DNA from: an uncultured Gemmatimonadota bacterium
Lineage (GTDB): Bacteria > JAAXHH01
Direction of reading: 5' to 3'
DNA length: 64,000 bases
Assembly: GCA_951812955.1 (NCBI GenBank)
Contig: OX638340.1
Coordinates: 64,001-128,000 of the forward strand
Shown: positions 1,623-12,032 of the stretch, in pieces
How the letters are laid out: every line of letters starts with the position of its first letter
How positions within the stretch are numbered: position 1 is the first letter of the stretch
Made by a program: the position numbers and the translations under genes
The notes under the pieces: model-generated
Told to the model about the DNA's origin: nothing
The model's input: only the letters and a program-made list of their open reading frames with translations
The model's database searches: none

Positions 1623-2693
1623 CTATTGACGAGCATTCGTCAGGTCTTCCAATTCATCTTCTTTGTAGGTGGCAGGTACCCATTCACGCGACAGGTATGG
1701 CTTGTCAATTTCGTCCAACTGTAATGCATCACGGTACCATTTGGGTAGGCCAGCTGTCGGCGGATTATCTGGATGGTAAATCGGCCGGTTCCATTGCGGC
1801 ATGCCGACTTCCGGCCAATGATCCTTGTCGTACTTCATAGGATATACCCACCAGAGTCCCAAATTAGATTCAACCAGGAAAATCTCGTCAGGCAAATAAG
1901 TACGCCCAGCAAGTAGAGTTGGTAACTGGTTCCCGATGAGGTCGAATCTCGTATGAGCTGCGTCCTGGCTTTCTAAAACCAGGACGGTTCGTGCTCCATC
2001 AGCACGACACTTCGCCAACTTTGGAAACTTGTCAGCAAAAGCTCTACGGATCCGTTCCGTCCGACAGCTTTCCAAGTCTTCGGGATAGTCAAGTACCGTT
2101 TGAACAAAGCCCGGCTTTCGTCCTGCCTTAATCCCATTCCGCCACCTCAGCAATTCGACTGTACAGTTTATACACGAGAGATCGTCTTTGATGCTATCGT
2201 CGGGAAAACAGTAAAGGCTGATTGGGATTCCATGGCAGTCGATAGGTAAAGACAGTAAGGTATTCCTCTCGTACATGGTCTGGGCACTGCTTAGAATCCA
2301 TTCGGCAAGGTTCTTCAAAGCCCTAACTCGTTTGACTTTCCCCCTGGGCAGACAAACATCTGTTGGTACTTGAAGCACGTAGTACATGGGATCTGGTAAC
2401 TGGCCGGCGAGGCTTTGTATCAAGTACTGTCTAATCTCCACGACGGTTAACTCAGTTTTAATATTGTTCTCAAAGGGTTCAATTATTGTGTGCTCAATCG
2501 CGTATTCTTGTTCACCCAATTTCATACGCAATTCCACTGGCGGCCCTACTCGATCACTCTCAGGATGACGTATTTCAGATCGTTTCTTCCGAGTGCGTCT
2601 TTCCATAGTCTTCACAACCGCGTCGCACGCCTTGCCCTCGTTTTTAGGTACGATTACGTGCGGTTTACTGTATGGAGTCTCGTTATTCTTCAT
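1623..2693 (-). CDS. Hypothetical protein (356 aa), no recognisable domain; island gene
   Basis: Long ORF with AT-richer codon usage like its neighbours. I could not recognise any conserved motifs. Confidence 0.5.
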   Translation of the reverse strand: MKNNETPYSKPHVIVPKNEGKACDAVVKTMERRTRKKRSEIRHPESDRVGPPVELRMKLGEQEYAIEHTIIEPFENNIKTELTVVEIRQYLIQSLAGQLPDPMYYVLQVPTDVCLPRGKVKRVRALKNLAEWILSSAQTMYERNTLLSLPIDCHGIPISLYCFPDDSIKDDLSCINCTVELLRWRNGIKAGRKPGFVQTVLDYPEDLESCRTERIRRAFADKFPKLAKCRADGARTVLVLESQDAAHTRFDLIGNQLPTLLAGRTYLPDEIFLVESNLGLWWVYPMKYDKDHWPEVGMPQWNRPIYHPDNPPTAGLPKWYRDALQLDEIDKPYLSREWVPATYKEDELEDLTNARQ

Positions 2694-3149
2694 CGTTTCC
2701 TAATCTAAATGTAATTAACGGAAAATCGCTGTTGATGGCTGAGTCAGACCCTTTCACCAGTCTTCCGATCCGGTAGCCTTCTGTAGCCTTCTACTGATTA
2801 CAACTTCCAAACCTAATCCAGGAGCCATGCGCCTTGTGGAGATTGCCCCTCTGCAGTAGGGCGGCAGGTCACGAAAGAATCCGTGGACCACTCCAGTAAG
2901 ATTTCACGTAGCATCGCCTACTCGCCCTGACTGTCAAATGCAACCTAGCCATCGGTAACACCAAGCGTGATTCACTAAAGACGGTAAGCCCATGAAGTCT
3001 TCACGGTTCAAAGAAACTCCGAATTCCCTTATCTACGGGTTTTAAAGGGTTATGTAGGGGAGGTGTTGGCAACTGCTAATGGATGTTTCAGAGGGTGGGA
3101 ATGCGGTGTTGAGGCAACTCATAATAGTCCTGGTGATATCTAATCCCCA

Positions 3150-3635
3150 TCACAAGTTGTTTGTACGTCGGAGTAATTTGGATGATACCCAACTCCATGC
3201 TTTCCAAACAAACGAGGTTTTAGTTAGTAAGCCTTGCTCTTTATCAGTCTCCATACGGTCATCGGAGTTGAAAAACCGGTTGATTTCCAATCTATGGTTA
3301 CTTCGCTCCTCAAGAATCTCACGTGTAGACCATCGGCGTGACCAATGAACTTTGTTATTTTCGATCCAATAATGTGATTGACACTCCTCACTCCAATTTC
3401 CCACAGAGGGCCGGAGACTTATAGATAACCCATTGTAAATAAACGCCCACCCAGTGGGATGTAACGGTGTGTTTATCTCGCTACCACACCCACATGCACA
3501 TTTATGGATTACAGTACGGTACTTCAGCGAAATGTAAATTCGACCGTCTTCTAAACGGTTGGGTACAACATCCGAGAAGACCGGGGTAAATTCAGTCGTT
3601 TTTGAAGACCGTTCTAATCGTTTTGTTTTGCACAC
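3150..3635 (-). CDS. Cys-rich small protein (161 aa; CACGCGSE...LHPTG), possible Zn-binding or E2-like partner of the E1-like gene
   Basis: Its start overlaps the last 22 nt of the upstream E1-like gene, suggesting translational coupling. It has a CxCxC cluster followed by an HPT-G motif and a further Cys/His pair (ECQSH). The size is E2-like, but there is no canonical HPN-x8-Cys arrangement. Confidence 0.45.
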   Translation of the reverse strand: MCKTKRLERSSKTTEFTPVFSDVVPNRLEDGRIYISLKYRTVIHKCACGCGSEINTPLHPTGWAFIYNGLSISLRPSVGNWSEECQSHYWIENNKVHWSRRWSTREILEERSNHRLEINRFFNSDDRMETDKEQGLLTKTSFVWKAWSWVSSKLLRRTNNL

Positions 3636-4831
3636 TCGACGTAGTCCCGGTTTATTATCTTGTTTCCGTCCATTATATATCCGGAATCACCCTCATGAAC
3701 TAAGTCTTGAAATACACCTCGGATTTTCTTCCATTTTATTACTGCCAATGCTGCATTGAGGGCGTTTAGTTCTGCCAATTGTATGTTTCTTTCGTACTCT
3801 CCAACATCTCCTCCTGCCATATCGATACGATTCTTCTCTGTCACATGGCCCCTATTGCCCGGTTCACTAGTAGTCGTTCGGAGTATCCCGCCTAGTCTAT
3901 CTCCTTCACGATAAATCCCCATCCCGGTATCAATACAAACGCTCTCGGCATCTTCGCAAATCCTAAATATAGATTGTTTTATGGCATGGCCATCAATACA
4001 CAGGAAAACTGTATCGTGTCCTTTTAACTCATTAACGTTTTCCTCCACAATCTTAGTGGGATGTGCAACAATACCGCGACGCATACGACTGTAGCGTTCG
4101 AAATGAAACTCTGATTTGATGGGGCCTCCTTCCAATTCTTCAACCGCTACTGCTCCCGGTGCTCGAAATGAGTTGTGCTGAAGAAAACGGTCATCGTCAT
4201 ACAGATGGATCTCTTTAACCCATGTCTTAGCAACATAGTCGAGAACGTAAGCCCCGGTCCCACCTAAACCAACAATTGCTACAGTCTCCCCTTCCAATCT
4301 CGAAGATATATCTGTTGTATTTTGACGGGCTGACGCTGTTTCCATAAACGCGAATACATTCGAATTGCTCTCGGATTTCGCGACTTTCCACTTCTGCGCC
4401 GACGTTGACGAGTCGATTTTCCTAGCTTCTCGCGTTATGATTTCAATATAGGTTCTTACTTTGTGTTCATAATCTATGTACCGCCCGCCTTCCGGCTTGG
4501 CTGAAAACATATAGGTTAACTTTAGACCATTGCTCAGAATCTGGTTGTGGCCGCTTTCACCCAGAACCTCAAGCTTCTGTGAATTCCCGTCATACGGAAA
4601 TTCTCCTGTCCAATAGGCCACGTGGTCACCTGGTTGACTAGTTCTCTCGCCTCTGAGGTCAAGTTGCATTACTAATGTTGCCTCTGCAATTCCTCCAACA
4701 CTGGTAACATAAGGCACATCTTGTATTAGAAGGTAGCCATCTATAAATCGGATTGTATATCCGGATTCCTCTATGCGTTTCAGATCCGTATTACGAGCGA
4801 TCAGTGCGTGTGACATTGAATACTGTCCCAT
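3614..4831 (-). CDS. ThiF/MoeB/E1-like adenylyltransferase with an unrecognised ~170-aa N-terminal domain
   Basis: Residues ~175-405 show the Rossmann motif VAIVGLGGTGAYVLDYVAK, an acidic/Arg-finger segment YDDDRFLQHNSFR, a VFLCIDGHAIKQ segment, and downstream Cys residues (ICEDAESVCIDTG), as in E1/ThiF enzymes. The N-terminal 170 aa contain no Cys and match nothing I recognise. Confidence 0.7.
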   Translation of the reverse strand: MGQYSMSHALIARNTDLKRIEESGYTIRFIDGYLLIQDVPYVTSVGGIAEATLVMQLDLRGERTSQPGDHVAYWTGEFPYDGNSQKLEVLGESGHNQILSNGLKLTYMFSAKPEGGRYIDYEHKVRTYIEIITREARKIDSSTSAQKWKVAKSESNSNVFAFMETASARQNTTDISSRLEGETVAIVGLGGTGAYVLDYVAKTWVKEIHLYDDDRFLQHNSFRAPGAVAVEELEGGPIKSEFHFERYSRMRRGIVAHPTKIVEENVNELKGHDTVFLCIDGHAIKQSIFRICEDAESVCIDTGMGIYREGDRLGGILRTTTSEPGNRGHVTEKNRIDMAGGDVGEYERNIQLAELNALNAALAVIKWKKIRGVFQDLVHEGDSGYIMDGNKIINRDYVECAKQND

Positions 4832-5060
4832 CCTTTATCTTCACATTTTCGCCTTCGCTCAAACCACCTTCTTGTTCACGTCCACCACCTTCATAAAACA
4901 GCACTGTGTAACTAATTAAAGCGCCACGACCACCATCCGGGTAAGCTAAATCCACTATTTCGTCAAAAGTCACTTCGTCATGGTCTACGGTGTACGGACG
5001 TGCATTGATTATGATATCAAAACCCTTGTTCTCTAGACTTTGCTGAGGTTCTTTTTCCAT
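4791..5060 (-). CDS. Small beta-grasp/ubiquitin-like protein resembling prokaryotic 'multi-ubiquitin' domains (~89 aa)
   Basis: The segment FDIIINARPYTVDHDEVTFDEIVDLAYPD fits the xIxVNGxxxxVxxxxIsxxEIxxLA pattern of multi-ubiquitin (PF14452-type) beta-grasp domains. The start was chosen at the internal ATG (nt 5060), which is preceded by AAGGAGG 14 nt upstream. The longer ORF from 5147 lacks an RBS and would overlap the upstream gene by 58 nt. Confidence 0.5.
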   Translation of the reverse strand: MEKEPQQSLENKGFDIIINARPYTVDHDEVTFDEIVDLAYPDGGRGALISYTVLFYEGGGREQEGGLSEGENVKIKDGTVFNVTRTDRS

Positions 5061-5089
5061 ATTAATGGCTTCCGCCTCCTTATCGGGAT

Positions 5090-5629
5090 TCAGGCTATGT
5101 CCCTGATGCCCAATGTCAACCCTCCTGAGCGAACGAATTCCCTCCATAGAGGTGACAACAATTGAGCTGCAACTGGAGCTTCACGAGAAGAAAGTATAAT
5201 TTGTAATTCTCTCCTTTCATCTAAAGGTGCCTCTTTCCATATATTGTACAAATCCCAGCAGTTTCCGTCCGTCAAAATACCGTACCTTACCCCGACCTCA
5301 GTACAGTATGTCAACATCTGAGTGCGGTGTGTGTTGAGATCCTCGTTCAGTTTTTTTGCCTCGACTAGAACCAGTGGCTTTCTATCTTCTCCAAGTAATG
5401 CGTAGTCAACACGCTGATTCGCTTGATTTCCTGTACGGAATTCAACTTCTACATGCTCTACGATGCTAACGTCCCAAGCAAGGGCTTTCAATACCGGATC
5501 CACTAATACATTCCTTGTCCTTATCTCATTTTTCTGGAGGTATTCTCCGTGTTTTACTATTACCTCACGTGCTCGTTGTAGCGTGCTTACCAAGGGTTCT
5601 AACAAATCAGTCATAAACTCCCTCACCAC
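5090..5629 (-). CDS. PD-(D/E)xK restriction-endonuclease-fold protein (179 aa), candidate nuclease effector
   Basis: RVDYALLGEDRKPLVLVEAKK gives the D...(D/E)-x-K catalytic signature of the Mrr/PD-(D/E)xK nuclease fold. It is the first gene of the minus-strand operon that continues into the Ubl-like and E1-like genes. Confidence 0.5.
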   Translation of the reverse strand: MVREFMTDLLEPLVSTLQRAREVIVKHGEYLQKNEIRTRNVLVDPVLKALAWDVSIVEHVEVEFRTGNQANQRVDYALLGEDRKPLVLVEAKKLNEDLNTHRTQMLTYCTEVGVRYGILTDGNCWDLYNIWKEAPLDERRELQIILSSREAPVAAQLLSPLWREFVRSGGLTLGIRDIA

Positions 5630-5982
5630 TAAGTGAGCGATTCCCCAGTTGAACTTCTCTACTATAATATACGGCTAGCGGATCTGTACATATTACTTAA
5701 CGTATGATTCGTATGGAACTCTGTCAAATAGATTTCAACTTGAATACAATGTCATTGCTGAATAGATCGTAGCCATATCTCATCTACACCATTGAGTAGC
5801 ATATTGGATTACGCGCGGCGGTTTGGTAATATCGCGCATTCAGGTAGTTGGCGATGCACTTGGCACGCCGCACGGTCCCTGCAGATACGCCACAGAGCCA
5901 ACTCAGGCATGCACGAGTCATTTAACATCAGCCCTAGAAAATGCCCTTGACATCATATGATTTATGAGTCATGTTATGATGT

Positions 5983-6351
5983 ATGAAATGGGAAGTCGAT
6001 TTCCATCCGGCGTTTGATCCCGAGTTTGCCGCCATGGCACTGAAGGTGCAGGACGAACTGCTTACACAAGCAAAGCTCTTGGAGGAGTTCGGACCAACAT
6101 TAGGTCGTCCGCGGGTGGATACGCTAAATGGTTCGCGGCATGCTAATATGAAGGAACTTCGTTTTACTATGACTGGCGGAGTCTGGCGGGTCGCATTTGC
6201 TTTCGACCCCGAACGTAAGGCCATGCTACTGGTTGCCGGCGATAAATCGGGAGTCGGTGAACAACGGTTCTACCAGCAACTGATCAGGAAGGCGGATCAC
6301 CGCTTCGATCTACATCTTGAACTGTTGAAAGCTGAGAGGAGGCCAAGATGA
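5983..6351 (+). CDS. Type II toxin, RelE/ParE-superfamily (HigB/Gp49-like) killer protein
   Basis: A 122-aa protein with ...KELRFTMTGGVWRVAFAFDPERKAMLLVAGDKSG...RFY..., the typical HigB/Gp49 core. It is followed by an HTH antitoxin gene that overlaps it by 4 nt. Confidence 0.65.
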   Translation: MKWEVDFHPAFDPEFAAMALKVQDELLTQAKLLEEFGPTLGRPRVDTLNGSRHANMKELRFTMTGGVWRVAFAFDPERKAMLLVAGDKSGVGEQRFYQQLIRKADHRFDLHLELLKAERRPR

Positions 6352-6698
6352 GTACGTTGACGGACAGAATGGACAAGCTGTCCCCGTCCCGACGGAAGAA
6401 GGTAGAAGAACGGGCCAGGGCGTTGATCGCCGAAGAAATGTCGCTACGGGACTTGCGCAAGGCTCGAAAGCAGACGCAGATGCGGGTCGCCGAGAAGCTC
6501 GGGATCAATCAGGAAAACGTGTCCCGCCTTGAACAGCGCAGTGATCTCTTGATTTCCACCCTCAGCGGCTATGTCGAGGCGATGGGGGGTAAACTGAGTC
6601 TGGTGGCGGAGTTTCCGGACCGGCCGCCAGTGGCGCTGACTGGCATTGCGGCACTCGACGACCTTTTGGAGCGGCCTGCAGAATCTCGTACCGGATGA
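6348..6698 (+). CDS. XRE-family helix-turn-helix antitoxin (HigA-like)
   Basis: A 116-aa protein with an HTH segment (LRKARKQTQMRVAEKLGINQENVSRLEQ). The toxin-then-antitoxin order matches HigBA. Confidence 0.65.
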   Translation: MSTLTDRMDKLSPSRRKKVEERARALIAEEMSLRDLRKARKQTQMRVAEKLGINQENVSRLEQRSDLLISTLSGYVEAMGGKLSLVAEFPDRPPVALTGIAALDDLLERPAESRTG

Positions 6699-6964
6699 AG
6701 AGAGGATCGCGATATGGTCGCAGGCGGGTCGCTAAACGTCGAAAACACACCGGTTCCCGGGTGTCGCGAATCTCAGATTTGGGATATATAACTACAGTGA
6801 GGCGGGACCGGCCTTGGCCTTAGTGGCAAAACGCCTACGATCGATCAGTTCGCATTCCACGCTTGTGAAGATTCTCTTGCACAGCACGTTGTCATAGTAG
6901 TCGTTTACCGAGCCCATAGATGGCCAGATGCCAGCCGTGCAAACCGGTGCCCGTCGGAGCGAAC

Positions 6965-8140
6965 TCATCCACTAGGCGTTCGTCCACCGACCTCCGTCGA
7001 GATTTGTAGAATATACATCAGTGACGGATCGGATTTGAGGAGAATGGCCCGCAGCTGTTCGTCGGTTAGCTTTGTCTCCAATTCGTGGACCCGGTTGAAA
7101 AACTCGATCAGCTTCACCAGTGCTTTGGTGTCTTGGATCACGAATTCAGACAGCGGATCGTTGTACAACTCCCGACAGACGTACAGTACCCTCGCTCGAC
7201 GGGTTGGCTTGCCCTCATGTAGCAGATCCTTCTGATTAGCTAGGCTCAGAATCCATGCAGTAACTAGATCGTCGGGGGCTAATCGTCGGAGCAAATGGTT
7301 CCACAGCTCCCTGAGGGAGGTCAGAATGTGCCGTGCCCGGTCGGCACTGTTTCCATTCAGGGCATCTCGAGCGCCGATGTATGGCCCAGCGAGACTTGGA
7401 TCGACCTGTTGCAGCAGAATGATGCAGTCGGATGTTTCTAACTCTGCCTCGGCGACAAACTGGAATTCCGTTTCGGCCTCTTCTTCGTCCCGTTCACCCC
7501 AGGGGCGAAGAGTTTTGAGCGCGAAGCTGGTAGTGTAGATTTCACGAGTGGCGCCTGGCAAAACGAAAGCAGGTAAGCGCGTAATGTCCGAGACCTCCCG
7601 CAGTGAACCGGCCAAACTTCCATATGAGGCAGCCACCTGGGCAATCGAACTCTCCAGCCCTGAAATGGCGGGCATCTTGATTTGGAATTGACTCCCTATG
7701 GCCTTGAAATCGATGTTCGCCATGAGTCGTTCCGTGGCGATCAATTGCAAAGAAGTATCGCCCAGGGCCAACTTAGCGGATGCTTGAAGCTGGAAAAGTT
7801 GGGAAACTCCCTGTTGAAGAAGATTCGACTGGTCAAGCCAGGATTCATGAGTGGTATGCAGACTCTCGGCAATCCAGTTAGAAGCGGTAGTCTGTTTGAT
7901 CACATCATGCCAGTGTTGATTGGCGTTGGCGATCTCTTTAATCCCGGCCACTGCTTCAGGTATTTCGAGGGCACGACTGATTTCCATTTGATGGAGACGG
8001 AATGGTTCTATCGTGCGTTCTAACTGTTCTATAACGCCTAGGTAGGATGGCTTGGCCAAACGGTTGGAAGCCTCCATGTCCTGACGGAGTTTGCCGATGG
8101 CGGATTTTGCGGACATCAGATCTTCGGAGAGAATATCCAT
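6965..8140 (-). CDS. Hypothetical protein (391 aa), no recognisable domain; island gene
   Basis: Long ORF in the AT-richer island, between the TA pair and HerA. No motifs recognised. Confidence 0.5.
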   Translation of the reverse strand: MDILSEDLMSAKSAIGKLRQDMEASNRLAKPSYLGVIEQLERTIEPFRLHQMEISRALEIPEAVAGIKEIANANQHWHDVIKQTTASNWIAESLHTTHESWLDQSNLLQQGVSQLFQLQASAKLALGDTSLQLIATERLMANIDFKAIGSQFQIKMPAISGLESSIAQVAASYGSLAGSLREVSDITRLPAFVLPGATREIYTTSFALKTLRPWGERDEEEAETEFQFVAEAELETSDCIILLQQVDPSLAGPYIGARDALNGNSADRARHILTSLRELWNHLLRRLAPDDLVTAWILSLANQKDLLHEGKPTRRARVLYVCRELYNDPLSEFVIQDTKALVKLIEFFNRVHELETKLTDEQLRAILLKSDPSLMYILQISTEVGGRTPSG

Positions 8141-8223: not shown

Positions 8224-9915
8224 TCATCGGCGCTGATATCTCCAACGCTTAACAACATCTTGAATTTCCGAGTCAGGAGTTGCATCGTTTTGCCACCCCT
8301 TATCGAAGTCAATGTCATTTGATTTCGGTAGCTGATCAGGATTTAAATCACGTATTAGGATGCGCGACGGCAACATTGCAGCTTGGCCAACGAAAATTGC
8401 CTCTTGCCTCCGTAAACCAGAAAGCATCTTTGTCAGACCAGACATCGAATCTGGTAGAATGGATCGAACATGCTCCCTGTCGGCGTCATTGGTGATTCGC
8501 ATAACAATCCAGCTATTGCATTGTGAAAGAACCGTTGCCTCAACTTCGCTTGGGCGCTGGGATACCAACAGGAGCCCTACACCATACTTTCGACCTTCCT
8601 TAGCAACACGCCTGATTGCTTCTTGAGCAGCCTCATATTGCGCTTCGCCCCGATTTGGAACGTAGCGATGAGCTTCTTCACATACCAGTAAAACTGGGTC
8701 AGATTCGCGCTCTGATTGGGTTTGCCAAATCTTCAGATTGAATAAAGTTCGAGCAATTACCGCACTTGATACACCGGCTACTTCATTGGGGACACCGGAC
8801 AGATCTACTATTCTTGGTTGAGACCCATCCCCGATAAGTTGCTTGATAACAGTAAGAAAAGGATCGTTATTTTCCCATTCTGACATCATGAATCGGAGTC
8901 GAGCATCGGTCATTAAGACTTCGAGTTTTTGGAGTATCGAGTTATGAGAATCTTGTTTGCTGAGCGCAGTTGGCTTATCCGCTTCAATCTTTTCTATAAG
9001 CCTCGATAACTTGTATGGTACGGGGGAATCAACAGTTATGAGATTGACATCAAGACCTAGCTGATGCGCACCTTCTTCGCGGGCGTAGATTAAGGCTCTC
9101 TTTACGATGTTAGCTTGTGAGGTCGCAACAAATTCAGTTCTTCCGATCAACAAGGCAACCGTCTCTTGAAAGTTCAAGAGCCAGTATGGAAGTGTTAGTG
9201 TTCCGTCATCAGAGGAAAGTTTAGTATGATCAGTAAATGCGCTGCCGTATTCACCATGGGGGTCGAGTATAATAACCCTGGGCTTCCATTTCGTATATGA
9301 TCTAGTGTCACCTCTATCAAGAATACTGTGAATGATAGCTGCGACCGTACCTGACTTGCCAGCGCCAGTGGAGCCGAGAACGGCTGTGTGTTTACCAAGT
9401 AGTTCATTCAAATCTGCAAAACATGGGGTCCCGCCTGAACCTACATGCTGCCCGAGCTGAACAACGGCACTTTTCGCTTTCCCGTAAATAAAACGCAATT
9501 CAGCTTTTGGAGTCAGATAGACAGTTTGCTGTGGGAGTGGATAGGTTGATACCCCACGTTCAAAAAAAAGCTTCCATTCACTAGATGTCCCATGAATCCA
9601 TTCGCCTTCGCCGAACAGGTCTGCTTCGACGATTCTTTCATCCGAAGATGATGCTGACACCAATCCTCGTTCTGCTTGAAATTCTGATTTCATCCTTAGT
9701 CGGCCGACCAACGCGTAGACGGTTTGACGCCCGAAATGGACTTTGACAATGGAACCAAATTGTCCGATGGGATAGGTTTCTCCCGCATACACACGCGAGA
9801 GTTCAGAAAGAGTCGGATTTAACTCGGCAACAAGGTGAGATCCATCAACTTCAATTATCTTGCCGATTGCCAGATTCTCAATTGGCTCATTGGGATTGCG
9901 AGTCGAAACACTCAT
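8224..9915 (-). CDS. HerA/FtsK-like (DUF87) ATPase, partner of SIR2 (SIR2-HerA defence system)
   Basis: Walker A is LGSTGAGKSGTVAAII and Walker B/DEAH-like is LLVCEEAHRY. The 563-aa size and the 4-nt overlap with the upstream SIR2 gene match the SIR2-HerA arrangement. Confidence 0.75.
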   Translation of the reverse strand: MSVSTRNPNEPIENLAIGKIIEVDGSHLVAELNPTLSELSRVYAGETYPIGQFGSIVKVHFGRQTVYALVGRLRMKSEFQAERGLVSASSSDERIVEADLFGEGEWIHGTSSEWKLFFERGVSTYPLPQQTVYLTPKAELRFIYGKAKSAVVQLGQHVGSGGTPCFADLNELLGKHTAVLGSTGAGKSGTVAAIIHSILDRGDTRSYTKWKPRVIILDPHGEYGSAFTDHTKLSSDDGTLTLPYWLLNFQETVALLIGRTEFVATSQANIVKRALIYAREEGAHQLGLDVNLITVDSPVPYKLSRLIEKIEADKPTALSKQDSHNSILQKLEVLMTDARLRFMMSEWENNDPFLTVIKQLIGDGSQPRIVDLSGVPNEVAGVSSAVIARTLFNLKIWQTQSERESDPVLLVCEEAHRYVPNRGEAQYEAAQEAIRRVAKEGRKYGVGLLLVSQRPSEVEATVLSQCNSWIVMRITNDADREHVRSILPDSMSGLTKMLSGLRRQEAIFVGQAAMLPSRILIRDLNPDQLPKSNDIDFDKGWQNDATPDSEIQDVVKRWRYQRR

Positions 9916-11072
9916 CTTTCACCTCCAAGCAGGCGGGTCAAGTTTTCAAATTTCCACCAAAGTAGGTCGGTGTCGGATGGTGCTTTTTTGCTGCCGTGAA
10001 AGAAGCCAAGATTAGCAAAAATAAGTACTTGCTCGGTTATGGAGTCATCATCATGCCATCTCTTAAGTAGGCCTTTTGGTTCATCATCAGAGGTAAACAC
10101 CACGACGGTAAGACGACCGTCAGATTCACGTAACGCCCGGTCGATTTCGAGATTGATGTGTGAATCACCAAAGCGGTACCCGCACGTAATCAGTATTTTT
10201 TGCGAACCTGAAACAGCCGTTAGTGCTTTCCGCCCATATTCTGCCAATTGAGCATAGGGGTCTCTTTGAGTTTCACGGTATTTGGTGGATGCTGGCCAAA
10301 TGAGAATCTTGTTTTTACCCCCGGATTGTACTTTGACATTACCGGAAACTCGGCGAGGGAGTGGATCACCATCGAACTCGCACCAGTTTATTGAACCGTG
10401 CAGTTTGAAGATCCTCGACGAGAGTCCATCACGCTCAAAATCCGCAGGATTCCACCATCCGGTGACTCCGCCTTCCAGACCATCTGAAAAGGAAACTCGC
10501 TCAAGCGCGAGTGCATCTTCAAGAAGCGTGTCGTAGTTGAGGCAGAGATAGTCCACACGATCAAAGTTGCCCGTTTTACCAGGCCGAATTGGGCGATGAA
10601 CCGCCTTTACGAATTTGCGATGAACCACTACATCGATTTGCTCGTCATTGTGCTCGATTATATTGGAAATGATACGCTTTATATCTTCTGCAGATTCCCT
10701 TAGTTGCTGGCCAGAATATCGATTGTCTTTGATAGTGATCTGGTCATCGGTTGCGCCTCGCTCCGCCCTTCTTTCAGCGATGGCCAGAAGGTCGATTATT
10801 TCACTAAGGTAGTCCTCAATATCTGGATCACTCGCACCGGTGAAACCTTCCTTAATTCCCTTGAGGATCTCTGTGGTATAGTCACTCAAAGCACCTATTT
10901 CCAGTACTTTAGTAGTTAGTTCTTCCATCAATGGTAAACCCGCGCATTTGCTACAACCTGCACCAATTAGGAACACTTTCCCATGCTGGACCATAAGTTC
11001 GTCTAGCGTATCATAAGCTTCAACTAATTGAGGGGTATCCCATATTGCGTCAAGATTGTCAGGTGCGCTCAT
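9912..11072 (-). CDS. SIR2-family (NAD+-consuming) protein of a SIR2-HerA defence pair
   Basis: The NAD-binding GAGxS motif is VFLIGAGCSKCAGLP. The catalytic Asn/Asp is LCLNYDTLLED and the catalytic His is KLHGSINW. The protein is 386 aa and sits immediately upstream of HerA, overlapping it. Confidence 0.75.
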   Translation of the reverse strand: MSAPDNLDAIWDTPQLVEAYDTLDELMVQHGKVFLIGAGCSKCAGLPLMEELTTKVLEIGALSDYTTEILKGIKEGFTGASDPDIEDYLSEIIDLLAIAERRAERGATDDQITIKDNRYSGQQLRESAEDIKRIISNIIEHNDEQIDVVVHRKFVKAVHRPIRPGKTGNFDRVDYLCLNYDTLLEDALALERVSFSDGLEGGVTGWWNPADFERDGLSSRIFKLHGSINWCEFDGDPLPRRVSGNVKVQSGGKNKILIWPASTKYRETQRDPYAQLAEYGRKALTAVSGSQKILITCGYRFGDSHINLEIDRALRESDGRLTVVVFTSDDEPKGLLKRWHDDDSITEQVLIFANLGFFHGSKKAPSDTDLLWWKFENLTRLLGGER

Positions 11073-11402: not shown

Positions 11403-11766
11403 TGATGGAGGTGGGGGGAATCGAACCCCCGTCCGAAAGTGCCTAAGCGGAAACTTCTACATGCGTAGCCTGTTGTTTAATCTCGTTCCGGAGAACTCCA
11501 GCAGGCAGGATTTAACCGGAACCAGCCTCAGTTGAGTCTCGCCTGGCGCCCTGAGGCGCGACGCCCGGCCAGCCTGCTTTATCGACGCTTTTGACCATCC
11601 CGCAGGCGGGGCTGATCAAAAACGGGCCGGCCTAAGTTACCTTAGGCAGCCATTGCATACGAAGGTTCGTCTGCAGATAAATTGTTCCCAATGGTTTTAC
11701 GAGGTTATCGGGGACCTCGGCACGCGATTCCCGCCGCATCCACTCCCGTCGAATCCTTTCACCCCC
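11403..11766 (-). ncRNA. ssrA: tmRNA (ssrA)
   Basis: The reverse complement begins GGGGGTGAAAGGATTCGACGGG... and ends ...GGACGGGGGTTCGATTCCCCCCACCTCCA. This gives a tRNA-like acceptor stem with a G3:U70 wobble (the Ala identity element) and a T-arm. The internal frame ...GCA GAC GAA CCT TCG TAT GCA ATG GCT GCC TAA (ADEPSYAMAA-stop) is followed by a helix-5-like GCCTAAG/CTTAGGC stem. CCA is not encoded. Confidence 0.85.
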
Positions 11767-11775
11767 ATGTCAAAG

Positions 11776-11804
11776 AACATAGGCCATTTGGGCGCTTCTG
11801 TCAA
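11776..11804 (-). promoter_or_regulatory. Sigma-70-type promoter for ssrA (TTGACA-N17-TATGTT)
   Basis: On the minus strand, TTGACA (11799-11804), a 17-nt spacer and TATGTT (11776-11781) are read. The -10 element ends 9 nt before the mature tmRNA G1. Confidence 0.5.
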
Positions 11805-11880
11805 ATTCGCCCGGCCGCGATGGTTCGGTTGCATCATGATACGGCAGCACCATGGTACGGCTGCATCGCGGTTTGGCCAG

Positions 11881-11953
<73 letters not shown>

Positions 11954-11959
11954 ATTCCA

Positions 11960-12032
11960 TGAGCGCGGAAGGAATCGAACCTTCGACCCACAGATTAAAA
12001 GTCTGTTGCTCTGCCAACTGAGCTACGCGCCC
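11960..12032 (-). tRNA. tRNA-Lys (anticodon UUU)
   Basis: The reverse complement is GGGCGCGTAGCTCAGTTGGCAGAGCAACAGACTTTTAATCTGTGGGTCGAAGGTTCGATTCCTTCCGCGCTCA. It has a cloverleaf with anticodon loop CTTTTAA. Confidence 0.85.

Follow-up and report, generated by a model that had tools for sequence, protein, structure and literature searches.

A Type II Bub operon with an associated PD-(D/E)xK nuclease gene in a low-GC defense island of an uncultured Gemmatimonadota bacterium

The window analyzed here is a stretch of 64,000 nucleotides (nt) of contig OX638340.1 (positions 64,001 to 128,000; assembly GCA_951812955.1), assigned to an uncultured Gemmatimonadota bacterium. PurA, encoded in the flank, groups with proteins from Gemmatimonadota metagenome-assembled genomes and so agrees with this host. 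Four open reading frames (ORFs) on its minus strand (5090-5629, 4791-5147, 3614-4831, and 3150-3635) encode, in this order, a predicted nuclease, the small ubiquitin-like protein BubA, the enzyme BubBD, and the cysteine-rich protein BubE. By content and order the second to fourth of these genes are a Bub operon of Type II (Bub for bacterial ubiquitination-like), an already published kind of system, and nothing in this core is new. Within the literature covered here, the nuclease is the only part that falls outside the published description of Type II Bub. Overall, we are fairly confident that the locus is a Type II Bub operon with a dedicated PD-(D/E)xK nuclease gene added on the 5' side, in a low-GC defense island beside a transfer-messenger RNA (tmRNA) gene.

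Gene models and operon layout

A first-pass annotation, made from the sequence without database searches, described four tightly packed minus-strand ORFs. All are present, and each has a family match far beyond chance. Alignments of homologues shift three start codons (nuclease, bubA, and bubBD) inward from the ends of the ORFs, and the protein records for this genome (NCBI/ENA) hold all four products with exactly these refined sequences, on a 3.81-Mb contig (Table 1). The ATG of bubA is preceded by the sequence AAGGAGG. With these starts, 29 nt separate the nuclease stop from the bubA start, close to the 30 nt proposed initially. The overlap of bubA with bubBD is 26 nt; the roughly 40 nt read earlier holds for the upstream ATG of bubBD (41 nt) and not for the supported start. 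The 22-nt overlap of bubBD and bubE is as first described, and the motifs quoted in that annotation (IIINARPYTVDHDEVTFDEIVDLA, D...EAK, and CACGCG...HPTGW) are all found.

For comparison we fetched 80 loci with homologous operons from GTDB genomes; a larger Type II set comprises 93 loci. The order bubA-bubBD-bubE is kept in 78-79 of the 80, and a majority of them share the 26-nt overlap of bubA and bubBD. The closest relatives, a clade with BubBD 59-89% identical to that of the window, had to be found by exact-protein look-ups, which provided the eight contigs examined; a metagenome scan with the single BubBD protein had returned only seven distant loci. Families were assigned with Pfam (gathering score as threshold), NCBIfam cut-offs, and PADLOC 2.0.0 (2023) models. 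Unless otherwise stated, BubBD residues follow the numbering of the 405-amino acid (aa) form and nuclease residues that of the 174-aa protein.

Table 1. Features of the nuclease-Bub locus, in window coordinates; functions are predicted from family membership and conserved residues
Feature	Position	Strand	Start codon and landmarks
Predicted stand-alone PD-(D/E)xK nuclease of HsdR N-terminal type, 174 aa, first gene of the operon	5090..5614	-	ATG 5614; ORF reaches GTG 5629
bubA, ubiquitin-like protein, 89 aa, with a short N-terminal tail ahead of a single Multi_ubiq beta-grasp domain	4791..5060	-	ATG 5060
bubBD, E2-E1 fusion, 400 aa (405 aa from upstream ATG 4831)	3614..4816	-	ATG 4816
bubBD, E2-like domain	~4382-4816	-	Predicted catalytic Ser codon 4504-4502
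bubBD, predicted E1 adenylation domain	~3617-4309	-	GLGGTG; Arg codon 4165-4163; crossover-loop Tyr codon 3796-3794
bubE, putative DUF6527 Zn-binding serine protease/deconjugase, 161 aa	3150..3635	-	GTG 3635; Ser77 codon 3407-3405; His88 codon 3374-3372
Intergenic stretch separating the operon from the divergent Gp49/HTH pair; presumed promoter/operator, from position only	5615..5982

The four-gene operon presumably has its promoter/operator in the intergenic region ahead of the nuclease gene. Promoter and terminator scans gave matches no better than in shuffled sequence. One sigma-70-like match lies on the minus strand of the intergenic region (5690-5661, 9 of 12 positions), and the number of such matches is not above that in shuffled sequence.

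The Bub core

Bub operons, formerly 6E or DUF6527 operons, were defined by the Corbett laboratory (Ye et al., bioRxiv 10.1101/2024.11.21.623953). According to the text of that preprint, Type II Bub (formerly 6E.2) consists of bubA, bubBD (an E2-E1 fusion), and bubE (DUF6527), typically without a JAB peptidase, and Type I (6E.1) consists of a fusion of a ubiquitin-like protein (Ubl) with an E2, a JAB-E1 fusion, and a DUF6527 protein. We assign the core to Type II because its products (Multi_ubiq, DUF6791 plus ThiF, and DUF6527, without JAB) equal the published definition. The initial view that this gene content fits no described Bil, Bub, or 6E architecture was therefore mistaken, since genes two to four match Type II Bub in both content and order. 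The closest known counterpart is the BubA, BubBD, and BubE set of Escherichia coli ZDHYS365 (Ye et al. 10.1101/2024.11.21.623953, in the text available; Gong et al., Structure 2025).

BubA matches the full Pfam Multi_ubiq profile (E 3.6e-14) and aligns, up to its last residue, with the third of the beta-grasp domains in E. coli ZDHYS365 BubA (PDB 9cd2, E 5e-7). The E. coli protein has three such domains, whereas the 89-aa window protein has one. The two C-termini (...FNVTRTDRS in the window and ...FYVTQTDKS in E. coli) share TD[KR]S, and Ser is the final residue in 91 of 93 Type II BubA homologues, with the consensus T-[DV]-[KRQ]-S. This terminal Ser (window 4791-4799) contrasts with the Gly usual for ubiquitin-like proteins; the passages of the preprint consulted (10.1101/2024.11.21.623953) treat only the C-terminal Gly of Type I BubA.

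BubBD combines Pfam DUF6791 (residues 16-165, E 1.4e-41) with ThiF (177-304, E 8e-13) and matches NCBIfam NF004805 end to end (434 bits, cut-off 352). A search over at most 8,000 candidates gave more than 5,000 homologues; among the matches listed, all 120 combine DUF6791 and ThiF. The family is present on 128 PLSDB plasmids, and no copy was found in the phage genomes of the collection searched. We used an AlphaFold model of full-length BubBD (mean predicted local distance difference test, pLDDT, 64.6; confident in the N-terminal half only) solely for the match to E1 families. With it, Foldseek retrieved Citrobacter BubCD first (E 4e-9), followed by UBA5, ThiF, and SAE1, in line with the E1-type enzyme proposed at first pass. 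A separate model of residues 1-172 reached a pLDDT of 83.6 and a predicted template modeling score of 0.78, and a fold search with this domain led to Citrobacter BubB. By this model the N-terminal domain, which had been thought novel, is an E2.

Conserved residues indicate how this enzyme may work. Ser110, in the motif F-S-x-K-P, is invariant (94/94), as is His70 (93/93, from 96 aligned sequences), and Lys112 and Lys124 are each kept in 91 of 94 homologues. All 96 aligned homologues have Arg223, Tyr346, and the glycines G188, G190, G191, and G193, as well as Asp212 and Lys239. In the window protein, neither the E2 domain nor the crossover loop has a Cys. The intervals from Ser to Arg (113 residues) and from Arg to Tyr (123) are identical to those of S106, R219, and Y342 in E. 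coli BubBD, mutation of which abolished conjugation (Ye et al. 10.1101/2024.11.21.623953, as given in the preprint text). Because the E. coli BubBD that we found differs from the ZDHYS365 protein by small insertions or deletions, the equivalence of these residues is drawn from their spacing and invariance. The E1 domain appears competent for adenylation, judging by its conserved glycines and Arg finger. The earlier annotation had looked for an E2 through Cys and HPN motifs; Bub enzymes work through Ser and Tyr oxyester intermediates.

BubE matches Pfam DUF6527 (E 1e-22), and the current Pfam annotation of PF20137 is 'BubE'. Four cysteines (Cys46, Cys48, Cys50, and Cys85), Ser77 (P-S-[IV]-G-N-W), and His88 (C-x-S-H-Y) are each conserved in 90-92 of 92 homologues, and the protein ends in an aromatic and hydrophobic tail, FVWKAWSWV. 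According to the preprint text (10.1101/2024.11.21.623953), BubE is a Zn-dependent Ser-His protease that removes BubA conjugates and has a C4 zinc site and a catalytic dyad, both required for this cleavage, and a hydrophobic C-terminal tail. We thus identify the Cys-rich protein, previously taken for an atypical E2 or a Zn-ribbon adaptor, as BubE from its conserved cysteines and Ser/His dyad; its predicted function as protease and deconjugase is taken over from homologues. Intact bubE ORFs lie without a called gene in the relatives L089 (4089-4565), L090 (7206-7652), L091 (7197-7643), L094 (6194-6670), and L096 (7010-7459), and score E 1e-55 to 1e-61 against the family profile. The gene may be systematically under-annotated in public contigs.

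The bubA-bubBD-bubE trio also occurs on three E. coli chromosomes, which direct blastn searches did not reach and a Vibrio intermediate sequence did. Window BubE is 42% identical to the protein of E. coli ES2, for which RefSeq gives 'ubiquitination-like system serine protease family protein', and window BubBD is only 40% identical to its ES2 counterpart. The E. coli and window systems share their three genes and the order of these (including, in the ES2 copy, the 26-nt overlap of bubA and bubBD), an E2-E1 fusion that lacks catalytic cysteines and has identical Ser/Arg/Tyr spacing, the BubA ending TD[KR]S, the C4 zinc site and Ser-His dyad of BubE, and the absence of JAB. Both lie in mobile islands at a tRNA or tmRNA gene; in E. 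coli the trio adjoins an integrase and a tRNA-Leu gene. Compared with E. coli Type II Bub, the window operon and its clade have the additional PD-(D/E)xK nuclease gene.

Other conjugation systems fit the locus less well. Type I Bub of Citrobacter sp. RHBSTW-00271 (BubAB, BubCD, and BubE; PDB 9ea4, 9ea5, 9eae, and 9eav) has the same Tyr/Ser oxyester chemistry and BubE family, but it has Ubl-E2 and JAB-E1 fusions and a BubA that ends in Gly after processing. In the window the E2 is fused to the E1, no JAB is present, and BubA is free-standing with a C-terminal Ser, so we rejected membership of Type I (6E.1): the E1 carries an E2-like N-domain in place of JAB. As first noted, JAB/JAMM is missing; Pfam gave no match among 10 neighboring ORFs. 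The absence of JAB, the single adenylation domain, and a fused E2 that would use Ser likewise led us to reject Bil. Type II CBASS (cyclic oligonucleotide-based antiphage signaling) with Cap2 and Cap3 resembles the locus in its E2-E1 fusion, in a dedicated peptidase acting as negative regulator, and in its defense-island setting, and CBASS operons commonly include nuclease effectors. Cap2, however, works with catalytic cysteines, and what it conjugates is a CD-NTase, not a Ubl; Cap3 is a JAB peptidase. No CD-NTase was found among the neighbors of the operon, and the PADLOC models for E1-E2 give only weak matches (best E 1e-6) that cover just part of the E1 half; membership of CBASS was rejected on these grounds. 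A PADLOC check of the neighborhood, suggested at first pass, did recover SIR2 (E 1.7e-68) and HerA (E 1.6e-138) in the island. It is uninformative on BubA and BubE, for which PADLOC 2.0.0 has no matching model, because this library is older than Bub.

The nuclease and its association with Bub genes

The nuclease scores above the gathering thresholds of Pfam HSDR_N (E 2.8e-7) and HSDR_N_2 (E 3.7e-7) and aligns with residues 3-111 of EcoAI-type HsdR (NCBIfam). Its scores and motifs place it in the PD-(D/E)xK superfamily, as had been read from the sequence initially, and nuclease activity is predicted accordingly. The putative catalytic residues are Asp70, Glu85, and Lys87, with Gln99 and Tyr103 forming the QxxxY motif. 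The ten aligned Bub-linked copies all keep the D of V-D-Y, E-A-K, Q-x-x-x-Y, and L-T-[DN]-G-x-x-W unchanged, so that the active site (D...EAK...QxxxY) appears intact. The nuclease is absent from the text of the Ye et al. preprint, a statement that applies to that text as distinct from its supplementary tables and the journal version.

HsdR N-terminal nuclease domains and stand-alone HSDR_N/HSDR_N_2 proteins share the D...ExK core and QxxxY with this protein. The kinship also shows in the profile of the nuclease, which recovered a genuine HsdR in locus L038; we rejected this jackhmmer match as a Bub partner, the full-length HsdR lying 3 kb away. Unlike HsdR, the window nuclease has only 174 aa, without helicase or translocase domains, and where context is readable its subfamily adjoins bubA-bubBD-bubE, not restriction-modification genes. 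It matches only the N-terminal nuclease part of HsdR models, and no HsdM or HsdS partner was found among the window ORFs tested; we therefore set aside membership of Type I restriction systems.

Within the close clade, the nuclease gene lies directly upstream of an 89-93-aa bubA in six of eight contigs (L088, L089, L090, L091, L093, and L094). The spacing varies from a 4-nt overlap (L091) to 54 nt, and the flanking genes differ in each of the six. More distantly, the nuclease occurs at three of the 80 GTDB loci (L014, L020, and L069), on the same strand and downstream of bubE. In a neighbor-joining tree of BubBD, these "downstream" arrangements form a clade apart from that of the "upstream" ones.

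Only 39 homologues, with 46-93% identity, came from a word-seeded and not exhaustive search with the nuclease as query. For 17 of them the longest contig has exactly the length of one that carries a BubBD match, so they probably share contigs with BubBD. Four others (L096, L097, L098, and L099), chosen because they did not match BubBD contigs in this way, were looked up, and all are within about 4 kb of Bub genes. The L097 gene (5001-5879, +), separated from bubE-bubBD by 3.5 kb and on the other strand, encodes a 292-aa variant with a C-terminal region of about 130 extra aa that has no Pfam match. No nuclease-Ubl fusions were found among the longer homologues. Pairwise identities of nuclease and BubBD correlate (r 0.95 for 12 loci, r 0.86 within the close clade), a descriptive figure only, because the pairs are not independent.

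The position of a putative regulator in L091 also bears on the association. There, a gene combining a helix-turn-helix (HTH) domain with Peptidase_M78 (CapH/CapP-like) lies divergently upstream of the nuclease gene and not of bubA, which would therefore place the nuclease inside the regulated unit; regulators of the CapH/CapP type control Bub operons. At the window operon we found no CapW, CapH+CapP, or CapK+CapS regulators, and the neighbor is instead a divergent Gp49/HTH pair. From this body of evidence we concluded that a minority of Type II Bub operons has this nuclease subfamily as a genuine accessory component.

A different nuclease-containing protein was observed at the same position in other loci. 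In L073, a gene at 1746-5201 (+) encodes a protein of about 1,150 aa with Peptidase_M78 (IrrE/CapP-like), UvrD helicase, and C-terminal PDDEXK_1 domains. Of the 93 Bub loci, 16 have an equivalent (Bradyrhizobium, Mesorhizobium, Xanthobacter, Bosea, and others). These genes share the strand of bubA, lie 45-84 nt upstream of it, and are unrelated to the window nuclease. That a second, unrelated PD-(D/E)xK-containing protein holds the same upstream position in another Bub clade hints at a recurrent pairing of Type II Bub with DNA-processing partners.

L092 belongs to the close clade but lacks the nuclease; divergently upstream of its bubA is a gene (3607-4632, -) for a DUF4325 protein of 341 aa. 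By reading, its translation seems to start with an HTH-like segment, and it recalls the CapK regulators, which have been reported beside Bub operons.

The island, competing readings, and proposed role

GC content falls to 0.44-0.56 across about 1-12 kb of the window, compared with about 0.6-0.68 elsewhere. The low-GC island with SIR2-HerA and a toxin-antitoxin pair that the first-pass annotation described is borne out by this profile, by the PADLOC matches, and by Pfam matches to the Gp49/HTH toxin-antitoxin-type pair that adjoins the operon. The island borders a tmRNA gene (11406-11766) and two tRNA-Lys genes; together, at 11406-12032 (-), these mark the boundary of high and low GC and represent a classic island integration site. 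We found no flanking direct repeats or attachment-site repeats for the island and no integrase within it. The ORF at 6792-6968 resembles a transposase remnant, judged from its translation.

Several neighbors deserve mention. A 391-aa protein (6965-8140, -) with C-terminal pP_pnuc_1 ('predicted pPIWI-associating nuclease', E 1e-20) is encoded on the strand of SIR2 (9912-11072) and HerA (8224-9915), directly behind them, and may be a third gene of the SIR2-HerA system; no Argonaute or PIWI family match was found among the island ORFs scanned. Another ORF, of 356 aa (1623-2693, -), lies 457 nt downstream of bubE. It has no Pfam, NCBIfam, or PADLOC match, and the closest relative, L088, has a homologue (4885-5673) at the corresponding place. 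L088 is collinear with window positions 1625-5956 and 6256-6740 at 85% nucleotide identity. The Gp49 (HigB-like)/HTH pair of the window (5983-6698, +) is divergent from the operon, and its HTH protein weakly matches capH (E 0.006). Because L088 retains the HTH region (1091-1575) though most of the Gp49 toxin gene is gone, the HTH protein might be a regulator of the operon rather than a mere antitoxin.

The core mechanism is known biochemically from homologues (Ye et al., text of the preprint), and for the window proteins we project it from conserved residues. A BubBD dimer would use ATP to adenylate the C-terminal carboxylate of BubA, here that of a Ser. BubA would then be held as a tyrosyl oxyester on Tyr346 of the crossover loop, be passed to Ser110 of the E2-like domain, probably that of the opposite protomer, and be moved onto a target lysine, with no cysteine thioesters along the way. 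BubE, with its Zn(Cys4) site and Ser77-His88 dyad, would cleave BubA conjugates and so restrain or reset the pathway. The nuclease, presumably co-transcribed and co-inherited with the Bub genes, would most likely act as the DNA-directed arm of this subtype. Our preferred, tentative view is that it is an effector or conjugation-controlled toxin, gated by attachment of BubA and its removal by BubE. It is less likely to be a DNA sensor or recruiter, or a loosely linked partner, and it could also be a target of conjugation. The biological output is probably antiphage or stress defense; the defense-island setting supports such a role without proving one.

Several observations weigh against a dedicated nuclease and a defensive output. 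About 96% of the sampled Type II Bub loci lack the nuclease, as do all 128 Bub plasmids and the close-clade loci L092 and L095; in the latter, a 165-aa ORF upstream of bubA was considered as a diverged nuclease and ruled out. Since the nuclease is missing from most Type II loci and all plasmid copies, it must be dispensable for core Bub function. The correlation of identities is also expected from plain co-transfer of neighboring genes. The link to BubA, BubBD, and BubE is one of genomic association, and the E1 half of the full-length BubBD model is of low confidence (pLDDT below 50 at residues 305-405). Finally, no Bub operon has so far proved protective against phage, according to the accessible text of Ye et al. 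(10.1101/2024.11.21.623953) and of a 2026 EMBO J paper.

This last point favors a role other than antiphage defense, in which Bub and the nuclease would serve a general DNA-damage or stress response or maintain the island as an addiction module. At 42 of 93 loci the flanks include genes for CapP-like M78 peptidases, the module is carried on plasmids and tRNA/tmRNA islands, and a toxin-antitoxin pair adjoins the window operon, all consistent with such functions. We nevertheless consider this rather unlikely, if the most serious of the alternatives. Neighbors in the window and in relatives are overwhelmingly known defense genes, including, beside the operons of relatives, GmrSD, type I and type ISP restriction-modification, AbiTii, HEPN, Vsr, and KAP NTPase genes, and the related Bil and CBASS-Cap2 pathways are antiphage in the published accounts available. 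A non-phage role would be compatible with the biochemical mechanism set out above.

Less probable still is an ordinary three-gene Type II Bub operon beside which the nuclease is a hitch-hiker functionally unconnected to Bub, such as an orphan gene of restriction type carried in one mobile block with the operon. The rarity of the nuclease in genomes and its absence from plasmids fit this reading, and defense islands do pack unrelated genes together. Stand-alone HSDR_N proteins of about 30% identity also occur in many unrelated contexts, such as beside ParA/ParB genes on a Thermomicrobium plasmid, and the plasmids searched hold only such generic relatives, at about 30% identity and in unrelated contexts. 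Against a hitch-hiker stands the persistence of the nuclease beside Bub genes while other flanks change. Its position differs between two BubBD clades, 5' of bubA in one and 3' of bubE in the other, and every look-up that started from the nuclease led to Bub genes. The 4-nt overlap with bubA in L091 and the invariant active site also argue for a functional tie.

The reading proposed at first pass, an undescribed Ubl system having an E1 without an E2 or a deconjugase, in which the Cys-rich protein is an atypical E2 or a Zn-ribbon adaptor, is refuted. It drew on the lack of a Cys-type UBC motif and of a JAB motif in all four proteins, and the missing PADLOC models for BubA and BubE would agree with it. 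Family matches, the fold of the N-domain, and the residues of BubE oppose it: the E2 is, by the model, the N-terminal domain of the E1 protein, and the Cys-rich protein belongs to a family in which experiments on homologues, as related in the preprint text, established a Ser-His protease with cysteines in a structural C4 zinc site. The architecture as a whole appears in that text as Type II Bub. A ThiS/MoaD-type sulfur-carrier system for thiamine or molybdopterin, suggested by weak E1 matches to ThiF and MoeB and by ThiF/MoeB structures among the fold matches, is effectively refuted by a score of 29 bits against a cut-off of 275 (TIGR02356), the BubA ending in Ser rather than Gly-Gly, the fusion of E1 to an E2-like domain, the presence of a DUF6527 protease, and a defense-island context with no thiamine or molybdenum cofactor genes nearby.

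The first-pass interpretation was thus partly supported: it recognized the right kind of system, a Ubl-conjugation module with a Multi_ubiq beta-grasp protein, a ThiF/E1-type enzyme, and a PD-(D/E)xK nuclease, and erred on its novelty, its E2, and its Cys-rich protein.

Bub pathways form a third branch of bacterial ubiquitin-like conjugation, described only recently and using an unusual Ser/Tyr oxyester chemistry, and in the text of its discoverers no Bub operon had yet protected E. coli from phage. The nuclease-bearing clade offers a handle on Bub function, as it supplies a candidate effector or substrate, a read-out in the form of DNA cleavage or toxicity, and a compact four-gene cassette. 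A sub-lineage of Type II Bub may, somewhat more speculatively than the function we prefer for the nuclease, have recruited an HsdR-N-type nuclease as an integral fourth component, serving as an effector or as a toxin switched by BubA and BubE. If so, it would be the first among Bub systems for which an output can be identified, tying Ser/Tyr-oxyester conjugation to DNA cleavage; if the nuclease is a passenger, the locus is merely one more member of a widespread and characterized family. The nuclease-bearing subtype is a modest addition to known Type II Bub, and it could provide an experimental entry to the function of Bub systems.

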